A DNA stretch of 64,000 bases, taken from the NCBI GenBank assembly GCA_016278615.1, contig JADQBM010000013.1:2607-66606 (forward strand). Direction: 5' to 3'. Positions 3,421 through 10,912 of the stretch are shown piece after piece (position 1 is the stretch's first letter; each line of letters begins with the position of its first letter). The notes beneath the pieces are model-generated. The model did not search any database. It saw only the letters and a program-made list of their open reading frames with translations, and was not told the DNA's origin. The DNA comes from Clostridia bacterium (GTDB lineage: Bacteria > Bacillota > Clostridia > Peptostreptococcales > JAAYPU01). The position numbers and the translations under genes are program-made.

Positions 3421-4170
3421 TCAACAATTAAATAATCCCCATATAACATGCCAAACTATGTCTGCCCAAAAATGAATACCAATTGCAGCTAAAAGTCCAA
3501 ATTTTCTGAAATAACAAGCAGCAAATATTGATAGCAGACTATTCAAAATAAGAATCTCAGTCATAAGAGCAATAGGAATCTCATTAATTGTATTAAAATC
3601 ATAAAAAATCATTATAGCTGGGAAGTGTCCCGCAGTAAATACAATGGCTGATAAAACAGTAATAGCGTAAAAAATCTGGTTTTGCCATTTCTTTTTCATT
3701 ATTACATAAGAAATAAGCCATATCCAAAATGAAATAAAAAACAAACGAAAAATTATCTCTTCTCCAATCCCAGCTGCTGCTGAAGCTACCAGAGAAGTAG
3801 GAAACGGTGGATGCGGAAGCGGGCTCAGTGTATGGAATTGGCTTAATATGACATCTGTAATAATAAAAATAATCCCAAGACCAATCCCAATAAATGCAGG
3901 AATAAAAAACCTTTGATTATTAGAAACTTTAGAATCCCAAATATCTGTAAATCCGAGTTTTTTTGAAAGATTTAATCCTATAAGCCCTAATCCTCCATAA
4001 AAAACAAGCATAATTGCTGCATTCACAATAGCCAGTATTGGCTTAGAAGCTGGAAGTTCTTGCATTGGTAAAAAGGCACCTTGTGGTAATAAGACATTAA
4101 TAGCTGATATAACAGAAAGAGATACAATAAGCCCTATGTAAATTTTTAATGATATGGACATCCTTTTCAT
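3421..4170 (-). CDS. CPBP family intramembrane glutamic endopeptidase (CAAX protease / Abi-like)
   Basis: 249 aa polytopic protein with the three CPBP motifs: EEIIFR (EExxxR), FTAGH (FxxxH) and HFWAD (HxxxD/N). Confidence 0.8.
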   Translation of the reverse strand: MKRMSISLKIYIGLIVSLSVISAINVLLPQGAFLPMQELPASKPILAIVNAAIMLVFYGGLGLIGLNLSKKLGFTDIWDSKVSNNQRFFIPAFIGIGLGIIFIITDVILSQFHTLSPLPHPPFPTSLVASAAAGIGEEIIFRLFFISFWIWLISYVIMKKKWQNQIFYAITVLSAIVFTAGHFPAIMIFYDFNTINEIPIALMTEILILNSLLSIFAACYFRKFGLLAAIGIHFWADIVWHVIWGLFNC

Positions 4171-4264
4171 AATCTCATTATCCCCCCTCGAAGTTCATTG
4201 GGGACATGCCAGTTTTTGCACATCCTTTCATCGGAGTCATACCAGTTTTTTTACTAACTTCTTC

Positions 4265-4390
4265 ATTTATTGTACATAAACCGGCACGTTTACACTTAAT
4301 TTTTACTGATGGAATAAATTATGCTAAGCAAATCACCTACAACTAATCCCTAATTAATCGTGCAAAATTAGGCATGTCTCCATTAGCCTT
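4265..4390. repeat. 126-bp direct repeat, copy 1 (123/126 identical to 6408..6533)
   Basis: Aligned by eye: atttattgtacaTaaaccggcacgtttacacttaatttttactgatggaataaattatgctaagcaaatcacctacaactaatccctaattaatcgtgcaaaattaggcatgtcTcCattagcctt. Confidence 0.9.
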
Positions 4391-4763
4391 TTTTTTTTTA
4401 GTTAATACTACAGGCTGTTTTCGGACAGTCTGCCGTCCCCATTTGTCACCAAAACCGATATTCAATAACTTTTCCCGCATTGTTAACCCCTCTTATATGA
4501 ATCTTGGATATACCTGATTCACTTAGTCCGAAAGATATACTTATTGGTTTATTACTTTCATTGGAAATTCTTTATCCCAAAATATTAAATGCCTTTTTAA
4601 CTTGTTAACTTTTTTCGTTCGTTTTCCAGCATCCAGTTCTTGTTTATATCATAGTTTGTCAATTTGTCAAGTCTGACCCCATTTATTCTACTTCGTATAA
4701 TTCACTTAGGATAATATGACGCCCATTGCGTTGGAAAAACTCGTCGCTTTATTTTGAAGTTAA

Positions 4764-5861
4764 TCAATCGCCACGCAAGATTGAGCGAATTATTGAATTA
4801 GCTTCCTTAATCTCAGTACTATCATATAGATTGTCAATTCTAGTTTCTATAGTGCTAAATATCGGCAAGATAATATTTGTAATTTTGTTTTCGTACTCTT
4901 TGATCGTTGTTTCCAGCATCTCAGAAAGTAGTTGATATTCATTGCTATTAAGAAAAATCATAATATAATTTCTGAAATATGATAAGCGAATCGAGTTTAC
5001 TATTTCATAATTTCCTTCATCATTTACGGTAAAGTTACACATTGACAAAATTTGAGTATGTAATAGGCACAAAAGCAATCCCTTAATTATATCCAAACTT
5101 TTGTCCACTGGCGGGTCGTCTCCCAAACGAGAAAAAATATATGAATACGCTACCGAATCACAAAAGCATTCTTCTAACATATTTCCGTTGATCCGGATTT
5201 TATCTATAGATTCTGTCAATAACGAAATATAATCTTTGTCTTTGAATTTACGGGAATACTTAGAATAGACTTCTTCCAACACTTCATTTATCTCAATAAT
5301 AGCACTGTCACGCTCTTTTTGGTATTGTTTAAGGCGAAATAGCCAATGGCCAACTTCATGAGCCAAAATATAGTCTACTTGGATATCAATCCACCTATTA
5401 TTTTCATTTGTTGCCAGCAAATCTTTGCACTGAAAGTCATCTAACGCATTTGCATTTATTGCTGTATAAAAGGCGACCAACATATCTTTTGCAAGATATG
5501 TTTCTTCAGAAAACAATTGATATGAGAATTTCCATAAATCAGGCTCTGTATTTTTCTGATAAAGAAATACGGCATTAAACATTTTTAAGTGCTGAGCCAA
5601 GTATTTGTCATATAGTAAGTAATATTTTGTTTTACTATTCTGTTTAGCTGGAATCATGAGACTATACTTCTGATAAGAGCAAGAAATAATCAAGCTAATT
5701 TCCGGGGCATTTTTAAAGATAACAGATTCTATGATTTCATCAAACTTATCATACAAAGCCTGGTTTACATATTGCTTATCCGTATCGGGCAAAACCTTAC
5801 GTTGCTGTGCAATAAACTGCATTACGAAATTATCAAGCTCGTTCAACTTCTTCTCCCTCAT
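4764..5861 (-). CDS. HExxH (zincin-like) putative metallopeptidase, family not recognised
   Basis: 365 aa. Single HEVGH motif (ILAHEVGHWLF). A downstream acidic segment, NMLEECFCDSVAYSY, is a candidate third ligand. Overlaps the upstream ORF by 29 nt. Confidence 0.55.
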   Translation of the reverse strand: MREKKLNELDNFVMQFIAQQRKVLPDTDKQYVNQALYDKFDEIIESVIFKNAPEISLIISCSYQKYSLMIPAKQNSKTKYYLLYDKYLAQHLKMFNAVFLYQKNTEPDLWKFSYQLFSEETYLAKDMLVAFYTAINANALDDFQCKDLLATNENNRWIDIQVDYILAHEVGHWLFRLKQYQKERDSAIIEINEVLEEVYSKYSRKFKDKDYISLLTESIDKIRINGNMLEECFCDSVAYSYIFSRLGDDPPVDKSLDIIKGLLLCLLHTQILSMCNFTVNDEGNYEIVNSIRLSYFRNYIMIFLNSNEYQLLSEMLETTIKEYENKITNIILPIFSTIETRIDNLYDSTEIKEANSIIRSILRGD

Positions 5862-6174
5862 TTTCTTTTGGGCGTTCTAACAATTGGTTCAATATTACGA
5901 GCGCATTGTCCTCCGTTAGGCCCTTAATTTCTACATCCCCAACCTTAATATCTACTTTCCGTCTATTCTTTATCATTTCAGATAAGACAAGTGCTACCCC
6001 GGTGGCAATAGTAGGAGTTAAGGCTATGCCTAGCTGGAGAATTTCACTGGCTCCTGAAAAGGATTTAGGTTCAATAACGCCAGTAGACATATCACTTATT
6101 TCACTAAGGCGTTCTGCATACTGTCTGTCTTCTGAGTTCATTTCGAATGTTATTAACAATTTTTTCACATCCAT
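5833..6174 (-). CDS. EACC1-like (effector-associated constant component) small protein
   Basis: 113 aa. N-terminal strand-helix LITFEMNSEDRQYAERLSEIS, Gly/Ala/Thr-rich hydrophobic hairpin GASEILQLGIALTPTIATGVALVLSEMI, basic KNRRK, and a C-terminal beta-rich VDIKVGDVEIKGLTEDNALVILNQLLE. The architecture matches my memory of EACC1 and has not been checked against an HMM. Confidence 0.45.
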   Translation of the reverse strand: MDVKKLLITFEMNSEDRQYAERLSEISDMSTGVIEPKSFSGASEILQLGIALTPTIATGVALVLSEMIKNRRKVDIKVGDVEIKGLTEDNALVILNQLLERPKENEGEEVERA

Positions 6175-6407
6175 TCATAAGCATTAATTTACCATTACAC
6201 CCCTTAGAACTAACTTCTTTCGTTTGCCACACTCATGATAATCCTTGACTCTTCTATTCTCACACGCATGGCATGTATTATTATCTATGCATCTACCATT
6301 GTTTCTGTAATAAAAAAGCAAATCCTTCTAATCTCAAGGCCGTTTATATTTTTTAAATACATAAATATTGATAATACATCGTGCCAATCGAAACGTCCCC
6401 TTGGCTT

Positions 6408-6533
6408 ATTTATTGTACAGAAACCGGCACGTTTACACTTAATTTTTACTGATGGAATAAATTATGCTAAGCAAATCACCTACAACTAATCCCTAATTAA
6501 TCGTGCAAAATTAGGCATGTCCCTATTAGCCTT
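6408..6533. repeat. 126-bp direct repeat, copy 2
   Basis: See copy 1. Lies 235 nt upstream of the EACC1-like gene. Copy 1 lies 95 nt upstream of the CPBP gene. Confidence 0.9.
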
Positions 6534-6601
6534 CCAGTGCAAAATTAGGCATGCCCCTATTAGCCTTCCATTAGCCTTCCATAGCCTTCCATAGCCTTCC
6601 A
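6503..6601. repeat. nested tandem array: 2 x 34 bp (gtgcaaaattaggcatgYccctattagccttcca), then 11 + 10 + 10 bp (t)tagccttcca units
   Basis: Read directly: 6503-6536, 6537-6570, 6571-6581, 6582-6591, 6592-6601. Confidence 0.9.
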
Positions 6602-6733
6602 TATAAATTAACCGTACCTAAACTGTGTACCGAAATGGGGTCACTTCAACGTCCCCTTGGCTTCTTTACATTCATATTTTCTCAGATTTTGCAAGTTCGC
6701 TGTTCTACGATGTGGGAAGGTCCTCAATTCAGA

Positions 6734-6753
6734 GAGTGCCACGGATGGCACTC
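6734..6753. repeat. GC-rich palindrome GAGTGCCA-cgga-TGGCACTC, 16 nt 3' of the 145-aa gene
   Basis: Perfect 8-bp stem. Shares the core GCCACGGATGGC with 7954..7973. Confidence 0.85.
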
Positions 6754-6768
6754 CCCCCAGAAGAATAT

Positions 6769-7206
6769 TTATTTTTTATCTTTTACAATCATCTTTTCAA
6801 CCGTTTCTAACCCGCCATCACGCCAACCTTTGAATGTATATACTCTTTTGGTAATACTTCTTCCTGAACCATTCATACCTAGTGAAGTACCTTCTTCCTT
6901 AAGAGTAAGACCGATTCCACCTTCTCCGCTTTTATCATAGAATTCTTCAATAATAACTTCTTCGGCAGTATCAATCCTTCGGGCAATTGATATTTCCTGA
7001 GCAACCCTTGCCTGTGCTTCTAACATTTTGAGTGATATTTCTTGTCTTAATGCTTCCTCTTTCATCTCTTCAAGGCTTCCGTTGTTTGACACCGTATTTG
7101 ATTTATTTATAATCTTCTCTGTGGTATCAACAACTATCCAAGTGAGAGGGCTAGTTAATCTTAATATCTCTCTTGAAACTCCTAATATTTGATTCATATC
7201 TGCCAT
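6769..7206 (-). CDS. hypothetical 145-aa protein with a central coiled-coil-like segment
   Basis: Strong RBS GGGGAGGATTAACT before the ATG. Central EEMKEEALRQEISLKMLEAQARVAQEISIARRI, Gly-rich C-terminal part. No family recognised. Confidence 0.65.
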   Translation of the reverse strand: MADMNQILGVSREILRLTSPLTWIVVDTTEKIINKSNTVSNNGSLEEMKEEALRQEISLKMLEAQARVAQEISIARRIDTAEEVIIEEFYDKSGEGGIGLTLKEEGTSLGMNGSGRSITKRVYTFKGWRDGGLETVEKMIVKDKK

Positions 7207-7251
7207 AGTTAATCCTCCCCAATATAATGCTTTAATTATTTCTGATTGGTT

Positions 7252-7923
7252 TCAATAATAAATTGCAAAATAAAAAACATCTTTCTCATTTCCTAAAAAA
7301 TAACAGTTTAGCTCTTGGTCTGCTTCTCCAATTAAATTAACAGGTAGTGGTTTATATGCACTGCTAAAATTATAGACTAAGTCGGTGGTATATGTAGGAA
7401 CTGTCATCTTTCTTAAGAATGGAAAGTAACAAAGTTTCCGTTCACTCGCTAATGGTTTGCTTCCGCTACCTTCACCTAATTGAATCAATTGTGGAAATCG
7501 TTCAACACAGTTAAACCACCCGATAATGAAAGCTCTTTTACCTTTTTTTCCCTCACCTATTTCTTGCAATAACCAATCAAAATCTTCTTGATATACAATC
7601 CAGTTCTTGCTCGCAGAGCTTGTTCCAGATGCACTTCTCCAATTTTTAAGGTATTTGACTTCTATCTTAAAATCTTTTGATTCTATATCAATATCATGGT
7701 TAACTTTGCTTTTTGTTCTATTGCCACTATCTCCAACCGTATAATGAGCCATCTGCTTAAATGGATAGCCGACACGAACACATATATCCATTTCGTTAAA
7801 TTTCTCATCTGCAATTTTCTTCAGCTGATTCCTTTCCAAATCACGATATTGCTCATTAAATTCATCAATAATAAAAAGGCAAGTGGATAATAGGTATTGA
7901 TCAATCGTTGGATTTAATCCCAT
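7252..7923 (-). CDS. PD-(D/E)xK (restriction-endonuclease-fold)-like protein
   Basis: 223 aa counted from MGLNPTIDQY. Candidate catalytic strand pair HDIDIESKDFKIEVKYLK (D...E-x-K). RBS GGAGTGGG 8 nt upstream of ATG 7923. The longer track ORF (to 8028) would read through the 7954..7973 palindrome and lacks an RBS. Confidence 0.5.
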   Translation of the reverse strand: MGLNPTIDQYLLSTCLFIIDEFNEQYRDLERNQLKKIADEKFNEMDICVRVGYPFKQMAHYTVGDSGNRTKSKVNHDIDIESKDFKIEVKYLKNWRSASGTSSASKNWIVYQEDFDWLLQEIGEGKKGKRAFIIGWFNCVERFPQLIQLGEGSGSKPLASERKLCYFPFLRKMTVPTYTTDLVYNFSSAYKPLPVNLIGEADQELNCYFLGNEKDVFYFAIYY

Positions 7924-7953
7924 GAAAATCCCACTCCATTCTTTTATATAATT

Positions 7954-7973
7954 GTGCGCCACGGATGGCGCAC
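7954..7973. repeat. GC-rich palindrome GTGCGCCA-cgga-TGGCGCAC, 31 nt 5' of the PD-(D/E)xK gene
   Basis: Perfect 8-bp stem with the same loop and core as 6734..6753. Confidence 0.85.
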
Positions 7974-8109
7974 CCCTTCCAATGTCGCAGAACGTTCTTA
8001 AATTGCCGACGTTCACTCTGACCCACAACGCCTTTGATTGAGAGAGTGAATGTGCGAAGCGAACGGCAATATATTGTTAAGCGAAGTAATTACGGAAACT
8101 GAAATAACA

Positions 8110-8457
8110 TCAGATAGTTATCCTATACCATGGTGGTCTACCATCTGCTTGAACAGTCCTCAAATAGTCTAGTACTGCATTATCATTCTCAATTGCACAC
8201 TTCTTAATCTCCCTAATAAAGTAATCAAGTTGACCAATTATTATATATCTTGCCTTACTCCCGTGATGTGCAATTTCTCCGCGTACTTTTACAAATTTTT
8301 CTATTTCATCGTCCTCAATACTCCATGCACTAGAAATCTTTCTTATTCCCAAATATCTCTTATAGCACTTATTAAGATTGTCAACCTTTGGTGTGTTAAA
8401 TTGCCTCATAGTCCCTTTGCAAATATCGGTATATATTTCTTTCCAACCTTTATTCAC
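8110..8457 (-). CDS. HEPN-like domain protein (Rx4H motif); possibly the 3' half of a frameshifted gene
   Basis: 115 aa with a GTG start and no convincing RBS. Helical protein with VRGEIAHHG (R-x4-H), as in RiboL-PSP-type HEPN RNases. Its reading frame is already open from 8499, overlapping the end of the upstream ORF. Confidence 0.5.
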   Translation of the reverse strand: MNKGWKEIYTDICKGTMRQFNTPKVDNLNKCYKRYLGIRKISSAWSIEDDEIEKFVKVRGEIAHHGSKARYIIIGQLDYFIREIKKCAIENDNAVLDYLRTVQADGRPPWYRITI

Positions 8458-8491
8458 AGCTTTAATTATGCTTTCTTCTTTGTTCAGGTCT

Positions 8492-8986
8492 TTATAGTTT
8501 CATCTCCATAAAAGGGATATATCTCTTGTAACATGTATCAATAAATTTTAAATACTTATCCTTTTTGAGAATCTCTTCCAAAGTATAAGTATCAAATTTG
8601 GTAAACAGATTTTCAATGTTAAATTCCTCAAACTCAAGATTGACTTCAACAAATCGGTCTAAATCATTGATTTGATTAGTATCTTGTATCCGTTTGTGAG
8701 ATGGTTCAGCCCGGCTGGTCTCCAAAGGTAACTTTAATGGATCTATTGCTCCCCCTATTTTCGAGCTAGACTTTTTATGTCCACCGCAACCATTACAGAA
8801 TGTTTTATCGCGTTCAATTAACCCTTGAGAATTAAGCTTAGTACACACCTGAAAAACTGTTTGCCTAGGGATAATATCACAGTTTTTGGATAAGCAGTCG
8901 TCACAATACCAACCCCCATGCGTTTGGAGATAATCTAGGATAGTATCTCTGTGTGTCAAAACTATGTCCCCTCTTTCCACTGTCAT
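8492..8986 (-). CDS. winged-helix-like plus CxxC...CxxC (Zn-ribbon-like) N-terminal domain protein; possibly the 5' half of a frameshifted wHTH-HEPN gene
   Basis: 164 aa. DTILDYLQTHGGWYCDDCL...QVCTKLNSQGLIERDKTFCNGCGG, followed by a helical C-terminal region. Confidence 0.45.
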   Translation of the reverse strand: MTVERGDIVLTHRDTILDYLQTHGGWYCDDCLSKNCDIIPRQTVFQVCTKLNSQGLIERDKTFCNGCGGHKKSSSKIGGAIDPLKLPLETSRAEPSHKRIQDTNQINDLDRFVEVNLEFEEFNIENLFTKFDTYTLEEILKKDKYLKFIDTCYKRYIPFMEMKL

Positions 8987-9466: not shown

Positions 9467-9519
9467 GAGATGAAATATGTATTTTTGTAATGACTTTGAG
9501 AATTCGACTCAAAAATTGG
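9467..9519. repeat. left arm of an imperfect inverted repeat of about 50 bp
   Basis: gagatgaaatatgtatttttgtaatgactttgagaattcgactcaaaaattgg, compared with the reverse complement of 9940..9990, gaagataaaatatgtattttctacattccattcggattcgaaaaaaattgg. Confidence 0.75.
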
Positions 9520-9891
9520 CAGTCACGAAGACGAAATTAGAAATTTCTTTCTTATTGCATGAGACCTGCGACGTAATCAGAGATTACTGCTAGGGCTTCA
9601 AGATAGAAGATGACTTGGAAAACCGTATATCCAACAGGACGTTGGCTTTATCTAAAAAAAATTGGCAGTCACGAAGACGAAATTAGAAATTTCTTTCGTG
9701 TTGCATGAGACCTGCGACGTAATCAGAGATTACTGCTAGGGCTTCAAGATAGAAGATGACATTAAAAATCGTATAGCCAACAGGACGTTGGCTTTATCTA
9801 AAACAATTGGCAGTCTCGAAGACGAAATTGAAATTTCTATCTCGTTGCATGAGACCTGCGACGTAATCAGAGATTACTGCTAGGGCTTCAA
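9515..9891. repeat. three tandem copies (146, 145 and a partial 86 bp) of a hairpin-rich non-coding unit
   Basis: Units start at 9515, 9661 and 9806 (attggcagtcWcgaagacgaaatt...). Each has GAAATT-aga-AATTTC and GTAATC-aga-GATTAC hairpins. The two full units also have GCCAAC-aggac-GTTGGC. No ORF of 60 aa or more in any frame between 8987 and 9991. Confidence 0.9.
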
Positions 9892-9991: not shown

Positions 9992-10912
9992 TTAATCAAA
10001 ATTTATCCTTTTTATCATTAAATCTTTCCCTGTAATTGTATTGCCAAAAATATTTTGAGCATTATCAATATACAAATCAGGATTCTGAAGTGAGGGGCTG
10101 TAGTGGGTTAGCCAAAGCTCCTTGGAATGACTTTTAGCAGCTAAAGCTGCAGCTTCAGAAAAGATCATATGTTTATTTTTAATTGCTTTGTCAAGTTGAT
10201 CATTTTCTCCGTACATTCCTTCACCTATCAAAAGATCGGAGCCTCTACAAAAATCAGCAAGTTCTTCCGTTGGTCTGGTATCAGTGCTGTAAGTTACTTT
10301 CAATCCTTTACGTTCTCTTCCTAAAACCATCCCTGGCTCATATCGTTTCCCCTCGTGCTCTATTATCTCTCCTTTTTGCAAACGATTCCAGAACCTAATG
10401 GGTATATTGCCTTTTTTTGCTCTTTGAACATCAAACTTTCCGGCGCGTCTTATTTCTAAACTGTAGGATAAGCATGCAATGGTATGATCCACCGGAACAC
10501 TTTTTATGATAATATCTCCAACATAATTTGTTGATAAATTTCCATCCGATAATTCAATAAGTATTATTTCAAAAGGCAGCTCCGGTGCGATAATGGTTAA
10601 TGCTTTTACAACTTCAATTAAGCCGGGAGGGCCATAAATCTTCAAGGGTTCTTCCTTACCGCTGTTTCCTAACGTCAACAAAAATCCTGGCAACCCTGCA
10701 ATATGATCTGCATGATAATGGGTAAAGCATATGGCGTCTATAGACTTAAACCCCCATCCGGTCATTTTGATTGGAAGCTGAGTGCCTTCCCCACAATCAA
10801 TAAGAATCATTTTTCCATTATATCGATACAGCAGAGCCGTTAATCTTCTATCTGGAAGTGGCATCATCCCACCACATCCCAATAAGCAAACCTCTATCAT
10901 AGTACGCTCCAT
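9992..10912 (-). CDS. rnz: ribonuclease Z / MBL-fold metallo-hydrolase
   Basis: 306 aa. HYHADH (HxHxDH) motif and short-form RNase Z length. N-terminal LLGCGG. Confidence 0.75.
   Translation of the reverse strand: MERTMIEVCLLGCGGMMPLPDRRLTALLYRYNGKMILIDCGEGTQLPIKMTGWGFKSIDAICFTHYHADHIAGLPGFLLTLGNSGKEEPLKIYGPPGLIEVVKALTIIAPELPFEIILIELSDGNLSTNYVGDIIIKSVPVDHTIACLSYSLEIRRAGKFDVQRAKKGNIPIRFWNRLQKGEIIEHEGKRYEPGMVLGRERKGLKVTYSTDTRPTEELADFCRGSDLLIGEGMYGENDQLDKAIKNKHMIFSEAAALAAKSHSKELWLTHYSPSLQNPDLYIDNAQNIFGNTITGKDLMIKRINFD

Follow-up and report, generated by a model that had tools for sequence, protein, structure and literature searches.

By definition, EACC1 is encoded by the 5′ member of a two-gene system in which the 3′ gene codes for a caspase-family peptidase; the protein was described as having one conserved transmembrane helix that bears a patch of small residues and is flanked by alpha+beta extensions (Kaur et al., 2020, PMC7159879). 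The EACC1 protein of Ktedonobacter (KrEACC1) is cut at about D49 by the neighbouring caspase KrAvs12; its N-terminal fragment is autoinhibitory, and toxicity resides solely in the C-terminal fragment, which permeabilises liposomes (Evans et al., 2025, bioRxiv 10.1101/2025.11.14.688446). The partners named in the EACC1 papers searched are only caspase-like peptidases or cyclic nucleoside monophosphate (cNMP) cyclases, mainly in multicellular bacteria, and no metallopeptidase partner is mentioned there. In this work we analysed a stretch of 64,000 nucleotides from a Clostridia bacterium (contig JADQBM010000013.1, positions 2,607 to 66,606; hereafter the window), in which a small gene resembling EACC1 is followed by a gene for an HExxH metallopeptidase (zincin). 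A first-pass annotation of the window had placed EACC1 among the components of nucleoside triphosphatase (NTPase)-centred systems, a placement that the two-gene description of Kaur et al. (PMC7159879) shows to be inaccurate. We propose, with about an even chance of being right, that the pair is a metalloprotease-gated variant of the EACC1 module that would act by abortive infection against phages.

The two genes span about 1.4 kb of the minus strand. On the longest open reading frames (ORFs), the small gene lies at 5833–6174 (113 amino acids) and would encode an EACC1-like latent membrane toxin, and the zincin gene lies at 4764–5861 (365 amino acids) and is predicted to encode a soluble gluzincin-type metallopeptidase of an undescribed family. 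The frames, their coordinates and their overlap of 29 nucleotides (nt; 5833–5861) are as first annotated, and the peptide stretches GASEILQLGIALTPTIATGVALVLSEMI, KNRRK, VDIKVGDVEIKGLTEDNALVILNQLLE, HEVGH and LEECFCDSVAY picked out at that stage are all found in the sequence. The gene pair is real and functionally linked, and it forms a two-gene operon. Pairing was counted over the fetched homologous loci that could be tested (numbered here with the prefix L), the window being left out of the count. In the loci found via the zincin (L001–L020 and L025–L027) a homologous ORF of 100–131 amino acids is directly upstream in all except L009, whose contig begins 146 nt upstream of the zincin gene, and this holds even at about 20% zincin identity (L019, L027). 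In the reverse direction, the zincin is directly downstream in 21 of the 23 metagenome loci found via the small protein, and the other two stop at a contig edge. The first-pass annotation had asked whether zincin homologues always follow an EACC1-like ORF, and they do so in every testable locus. Both proteins are conserved down to 13–17% identity, and their pairwise identities correlate with r = 0.97 over 28 distinct pairs, a value reached by none of 2000 Mantel permutations. Across the homologous loci the pair has no conserved third gene, which argues that there is no NTPase partner; the absence of such a partner had already been suspected, and the window flanks contain none. An SpbK-like TIR protein, a caspase and Gabija were considered as an obligatory third component and rejected, as none of them is conserved across loci.

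Translational coupling had initially been suggested by the 29-nt overlap. In alignments of the small protein and of the zincin alike, the N-termini of homologues align at the position of Leu6. Started at its Leu6 (TTG at 6159), the small protein would have about 108 amino acids. For the zincin, a likely ribosome-binding site, AGGGAG (5858–5853), is followed after a 6-nt spacer by TTG (5846–5844), so that the likely translation start signals (5844–5858, minus strand) sit within the 3′ end of the small gene. This TTG preceded by a ribosome-binding site, together with the homologue starts at Leu6, indicates that the zincin probably has 360 amino acids and that the overlap is about 14 nt. In homologous loci the junction ranges from an overlap of about 11 nt to a gap of 11 nt. 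Across loci the two genes stay tightly coupled, and the overlap is not kept at one exact length. A promoter-like site (GTGAGA, 17 nt, TATCAT; 6235–6263, minus strand) lies about 60 nt upstream of the small gene; it matches the consensus weakly, and the number of such sites on both strands of the scanned region (18, compared with 13.4 ± 4.0 in shuffles) is not clearly above expectation.

Tight coupling with the toxin-like gene first, strict pairing and co-divergence are also what suggests a protease-antitoxin arrangement, an addiction or toxin–antitoxin-like module of mobile elements in which the small membrane protein would be constitutively toxic and the zincin would continuously degrade or inactivate it. 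The toxin would then accumulate once the operon is lost, or when the protease or host translation is inhibited in the course of infection. The pair is often found beside serine recombinases on apparent integrative elements (a serine recombinase is present in L018, and large serine recombinases in L011, L012, L016, L025, L026, L027, L035 and L050), which fits such a module. However, EACC1 provides a precedent for activation and not for degradation, the full-length protein being non-toxic, and the small protein retains the N-terminal segment that is autoinhibitory in EACC1. In addition, the zincin frame is split next to an intact small gene in three metagenome loci (L032 2853–3973, L040 2311–3458, L050 2823–3972). 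These split zincins may be pseudogenes or assembly errors; unless they are the latter, a cell would hardly tolerate them beside a constitutive toxin, a point to which we give slight weight. Altogether we regard the antitoxin explanation as unlikely, and we return to the proposal that the zincin activates the small protein.

The resemblance to EACC1 lies first in the architecture of the small protein. Proteins of the small family have 100–131 amino acids and one hydrophobic segment, at residues 42–68. The layout, in which secondary structure is inferred from the alignment, is an N-terminal strand-helix, a PKSFSG linker, one hydrophobic helix, a basic patch and a C-terminal strand-strand-helix, and there are no leader or export features. 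The linker motif P36–G41 (codons at 6052–6069, minus strand), directly N-terminal of the hydrophobic helix, is the most conserved motif of the family, where it reads PKSFS[GS], and P36 and S38 are invariant in 13 aligned sequences; it is the proposed site of zincin cleavage. Residues 42–68, ASEILQLGIALTPTIATGVALVLSEMI (5971–6051, minus strand), are the sole hydrophobic segment and are rich in the small residues Gly, Ala, Thr and Pro. Its position and strength match between the small family and EACC1: the highest Kyte–Doolittle mean over 19 residues is 1.82 at residue 45 of the small protein and 1.71 at residue 53 of KrEACC1. Residues 69–100 (5875–5970, minus strand) comprise the basic patch KNRRK, two predicted short strands (VDIKVG and VEIKGL) and a helix (EDNALVILNQLLE), with K69, N70, I76, G85 and L98 conserved; they are the counterpart of the C-terminal strand-strand-helix of EACC1 and are collinear with residues 75–110 of KrEACC1. 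The small protein matches no Pfam, NCBIfam, PADLOC, PHROG or PDB-sequence family. A holin identity was considered and rejected, the single match being below threshold and confined to one homologue.

The second line of resemblance comes from profile–profile comparison with a reference set of genuine EACC1 proteins, made up of KrEACC1 (sequence from the supplement of bioRxiv 10.1101/2025.11.14.688446), eight close relatives and two more distant EACC1 proteins from genomes with caspase-like neighbours. Comparison of the two families with hhalign gave one full-length collinear alignment (1–103 against 1–113) with a score of 28–31 and an E-value (E) of 8e-5 to 3.7e-4. Reversed profiles scored 15–16, and 150 full column shuffles scored 10.9 ± 2.1 with a maximum of 17.8. 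Shuffling within segments, which holds the N-terminal, hydrophobic and C-terminal segments in place, gave 12.3 ± 2.4 with a maximum of 25.7, and none of the 150 shuffles reached the real score. When a hidden Markov model (HMM) built only from EACC1 proteins was run on the 1,571 ORFs of the window and loci, small-family ORFs ranked first to third and made up 30 of the top 40, each with an E-value above 0.1. Furthermore, in both the hhalign and the MAFFT alignments PKSFS[GS] falls at the KrEACC1 cleavage site, between D49 and W50; the KrEACC1 fragments calculated for that site, 5727 and 7174 Da, agree with the published 5.7 and 7.1 kDa. The gene order is also that of the EACC1 system, with the small gene 5′ and the peptidase gene 3′, as for genuine EACC1 in L022 and L023. 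We conclude from these comparisons that the small protein is probably related to EACC1, though distantly, or is at the least closely analogous to it in architecture. In an Obscuribacterales metagenome-assembled genome (MAG; L024, 2959–4944) a genuine EACC1 relative and its caspase-like neighbour are convergent on opposite strands, unlike the usual co-directional operon.

The second protein of the pair appears to be a soluble peptidase of gluzincin-like type that is catalytically competent and represents an undescribed family, as judged from its conserved residues and its predicted structure. A word-indexed search of 5.8 billion proteins returned three relatives for each of the two proteins, all in metagenome assemblies, and a profile search of 1.84 billion representative proteins returned 63 clusters of the zincin family at E ≤ 1e-3, most members having 350–380 amino acids. 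The motif H168-E-V-G-H172 (codons at 5346–5360, minus strand), an HExxH zinc-binding and catalytic motif in a predicted helix (152–176), is present in all 46 full-length members of the family. In 32 aligned full-length zincins H168, E169, H172 and D235 are invariant, and D85, E119, Q161, E230, E231 and R292 are each shared by at least 90% of the sequences. The gluzincin signature is an HExxH followed by an ExxxD on a later helix, as in thermolysin (NExxSD) and neprilysin (ExxxD). An ExxxD is found 40–80 residues after HExxH in 39 of the 46 members, usually as EECxCD. In the window protein this is E230-E-C-F-C-D235 (codons at 5157–5174, minus strand) in a predicted helix (226–244), where, by comparison with thermolysin and neprilysin, E231 is proposed to be the third zinc ligand and D235 the supporting Asp. 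The zincin has no convincing transmembrane segment, and the longer, more distant members of the family carry no recognisable extra Pfam domains. An AlphaFold2 model made from the 32-sequence alignment is confident, with a predicted local distance difference test (pLDDT) of 90.0 and a predicted template modelling score (pTM) of 0.89, compared with a pLDDT of 37.7 when just four sequences were used; it consists of a three-stranded sheet (55–85) with HExxH on the 152–176 helix and EECFCD on the 226–244 helix.

This protein shares with the thermolysin (M4), neprilysin (M13) and ImmA/IrrE (M78) peptidases a helix bearing HExxH followed by a helix bearing ExxxD; it differs from them in passing the Pfam threshold of no family and in having no significant match to a PDB sequence or fold. 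The spacing from HExxH to ExxxD, about 49–75 residues, accommodates two inserted helices, and there are large helical regions specific to the family. The recurrent Pfam matches, seen in a few family members, are all to zincins (M78, M13, M48) and all below threshold. PDB sequence searches with profiles of 5 and 32 zincins gave best alignments that are not significant (E of about 1) and that fall on the HExxH of fragilysin and ZMPSTE24; the best match of the model in BFVD is an uncharacterised Myoviridae protein (E 2.5e-3, TM-score 0.49). The first-pass annotation had been unable to assign the HExxH protein to a family, which is borne out: searches of Pfam, NCBIfam, PADLOC, PHROG and PDB sequences gave no family match, and Foldseek gave no significant one. 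PADLOC-DB v2.0.0 contains no family matching either protein of the pair at E ≤ 1.

Because EACC1 is a toxin cut by a neighbouring protease, the peptidase of the pair is likely to be the activator and the small protein the effector. The small protein had initially been viewed as an adaptor that holds or activates a peptidase effector; these roles are most likely reversed, given that EACC1 is a latent pore-forming toxin cut by the protease next to it (bioRxiv 10.1101/2025.11.14.688446). In the mechanism that we propose, the small protein would be made as an autoinhibited, harmless precursor. Upon a trigger, presumably phage infection sensed by the zincin itself, the zincin would cut the linker just before the hydrophobic helix, within PKSFSG. 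The freed C-terminal fragment, of about 7.9 kDa, would oligomerise into membrane pores, and the infected cell would die before the phage cycle is completed. That the zincin cleaves the small protein and where, that pores form, what the trigger is and that the pair acts in defence are all inferred by analogy.

What the pair has in common with the EACC1–caspase system is a defence-island context, a 3′ peptidase gene adjoining or overlapping the 5′ gene, and a 5′ protein of about 110 amino acids that runs from an N-terminal strand-helix through a linker and one hydrophobic helix, with many small residues, to a strand-strand-helix at its C-terminus. In contrast with the EACC1 partner, which is a caspase-superfamily cysteine peptidase (or a cNMP cyclase), the partner here is an HExxH zincin with no caspase match, and it has no recognisable fused NTPase, repeat or other sensor domain. 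The pair occurs in low-GC, mostly gut Clostridia, whereas EACC1 occurs in Actinobacteria, Chloroflexi or cyanobacteria of multicellular habit, and the residues at the cleavage site differ, the proposed cut here following SFSG and preceding A, whereas that of EACC1 follows TQD and precedes W. A similar logic is found in the modules of Pepco (Trypco1/2) with proteases and of bacterial gasdermins with proteases, where, as proposed here, a small or autoinhibited pore-former stands beside a dedicated protease that releases it. No sequence relationship to these modules was detected; gasdermins are much larger, and their proteases are of serine or cysteine types. We further suggest, as a tentative claim that may well prove wrong, that the pair is a minimal, self-sufficient proteolysis-gated pore system, in which a metalloprotease of an unseen fold variant would be both sensor and activator of an EACC1-type toxin, without any NTPase, repeat or other sensor domain. 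If this is right, an unrelated class of protease has adopted the EACC1 effector, which has spread on mobile elements through unicellular gut Clostridia.

The neighbourhood of the pair provides some indication of a role in defence. Homologous pairs lie in defence islands or on mobile elements, with the serine recombinases named above as neighbours in several loci, and a HEPN fragment is close to the pair in the window. In a Clostridium sp. MAG (L010) a complete Gabija system (3782–7509; GajA E 1.9e-199, GajB E 4e-200) stops 140 nt short of the small gene on its upstream side, and a DUF6615 gene lies downstream of the zincin. In 16 loci, namely L011 (6401–7624), L012 and 14 metagenome loci (L035–L046, L048 and L049), a gene for an SpbK-like TIR protein of 407 amino acids (E 4.3e-69) is directly upstream of the pair, and in half of these 16 a Peptidase_C14 caspase gene lies beyond the TIR gene on the opposite strand (for example L044 1–1041). 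Neither the TIR gene nor the Peptidase_C14 gene is conserved with the pair in other clades. Elsewhere the neighbours include an OLD/AriA-like ATPase (L017), an Mrr nuclease and a resolvase (L018), a PDC-S31 protein (L033) and a HEPN protein (L028).

A reading without any role in defence has to be weighed against this context, namely that the pair serves peptide maturation or signalling, as in FxSxx-COOH systems, or that the zincin is an ImmA/IrrE-like protease that regulates a mobile element. Zincins associated with small precursors are already known, and in the FxSxx-COOH pair too a zincin gene accompanies a small protein thought to be cleaved (PMC7159879). The mobile-element context, the metabolic or capsule-type surroundings of several loci and matches to Peptidase_M78 (IrrE/ImmA) in 4 of 32 zincin members (best E 1.3e-3, below threshold) point in the same direction. 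However, unlike the rapidly diverging FxSxx precursor, the small protein here is well conserved and has a hydrophobic helix, and its F-S motif is internal instead of C-terminal. It lacks leader and export features, its hydrophobic helix is like those of membrane toxins, and neither NCBIfam nor Pfam gives a match to FxSxx-type or bacteriocin families; the FxSxx-COOH zincin itself was rejected as a relative, as no model of either database matches. Contrary to ImmA, the zincin has no adjacent helix–turn–helix repressor conserved as its partner (a helix–turn–helix gene is present in L020 only), its conserved neighbour being the small membrane-type protein. Finally, the pair recurs beside Gabija, SpbK-like TIR, OLD-family ATPase, Mrr and PDC-S31 genes. 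A role unrelated to defence is, in our view, distinctly unlikely.

Several results nevertheless weigh against the proposal of a metalloprotease-gated EACC1 module. The constant partner that defines EACC1 is a caspase, and the partner of the small protein is of another kind. The zincin has no recognisable sensor domain, and a Foldseek comparison of its model with the PDB returned no solved structure at E < 1e-3, the top matches being generic long-helix bundles. The TIR-adjacent loci are not independent, because many are one element sampled in different gut metagenomes, and some neighbours have no connection with defence, such as the transport and metabolism genes of L001–L005 and the sugar transferases of L029–L032. 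The small protein has no BLASTP match to KrEACC1, and the Pfam EACC1 model (PF19953) does not match it at E ≤ 10, nor six of its relatives (three close homologues and those of L010, L017 and L019). The significant EACC1 HMM match on which the first-pass annotation had made its comparison depend was thus not obtained with PF19953 at E ≤ 10; of that comparison the architecture, the gene order and the profile–profile alignment stand. Lastly, the hhalign probability is 36–61%, and because it is no higher, convergence of a simple architecture could account for the resemblance. Two of these silences have to be read against a positive control. KrEACC1 itself barely passes PF19953 (28.2 bits for a threshold of 23.6), which indicates that the model is weak for outlying EACC1 proteins, and NCBIfam release 20 misses KrEACC1 entirely, so that the silence of NCBIfam on the small protein is uninformative. 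In the end, the small protein is not a demonstrable member of PF19953 on the models searched, and its membership is unproven because no HMM match is significant.

The same negative results are the basis for keeping the original adaptor idea, in which the small protein would be a membrane adaptor, anchor or regulator that merely converges on the EACC1 layout, and the zincin would be an effector that cuts another phage or host target. With no significant EACC1 HMM match and an hhalign probability of at most 61%, and with a large zincin (360 amino acids) whose catalytic residues are conserved and whose extra helical regions could bind another substrate, this idea has some substance. Nevertheless, we hold it to be improbable: the similarity to EACC1 is full-length, collinear and above all 150 within-segment shuffles, the EACC1 HMM ranks the small ORFs at the top, the most conserved motif of the small protein falls exactly at the EACC1 cleavage position, and experiment has since displaced the view of EACC1 itself as an adaptor. 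Taken together, these observations leave a cleavable, EACC1-like toxin activated by its neighbour as the reading that we prefer.

The hosts of the zincin-found loci are Clostridia MAGs (Acutalibacteraceae, Oscillospiraceae, Lachnospiraceae, Clostridium, Eubacterium and Clostridiales). GTDB genomes gave no match when scanned with the closest zincin clade (A3) or with clade C (A8), nor did viral contigs when scanned with clade C (A8), and tblastn gave no match to the family in cultured phages or in plasmids. Two loci (L025 and L026) are IMG/VR contigs classed as viral; their small protein has 131 amino acids with a longer C-terminal tail, and the genes on either side of their pair are large serine recombinases and a metallophosphoesterase-like ORF.

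The proteins of the window are singletons in the collection searched. The pair of the window has a CPBP/Rce1-like gene on one side and several unannotated ORFs, in a group, on the other. The former encodes an intramembrane protease (3421–4170, minus strand; PF02517, E 3.6e-8) and lies 600 nt downstream of the zincin gene; it is not conserved beside the pair in other loci. Two unannotated ORFs of 145 and 258 amino acids (6769–8028, minus strand) lie immediately upstream of the pair, and the longer one contains DIDIESKDFKIEVKYLK, a stretch that resembles a PD-(D/E)xK nuclease motif, with no family or PDB match. Further upstream (8110–8986, minus strand), an ORF of 115 amino acids matches only the C-terminal part of HEPN RiboL-PSP (E 1.1e-5, slightly short of the threshold). 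A winged-helix-like ORF of 164 amino acids (phrog_2440, 1.8e-5) ends a little way upstream of it in a different frame, and the two may be one disrupted gene. Between this winged-helix ORF and an RNase Z-like gene (9992–10912) is an ORF-free gap of about 1 kb with a tandem repeat at 9511–9891 (period of 146 nt, 2.6 copies, 94% identity), in which no Rfam family and no tRNA was found.

Linked protease–effector modules are an emerging major theme of prokaryotic immunity, and the proteases of those described are of serine or cysteine types and are usually part of a fusion with a large sensor. If our proposal is correct, an EACC1-like module gated by a metalloprotease would bring a third class of protease, and Clostridia of the human gut, under this logic, and it would offer, in about 1.4 kb, a very compact system in which to study the licensing of a pore-forming pro-toxin. 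The zincin family, rare and wholly uncharacterised, with a confident model and no solved relative, is of interest for peptidase classification.

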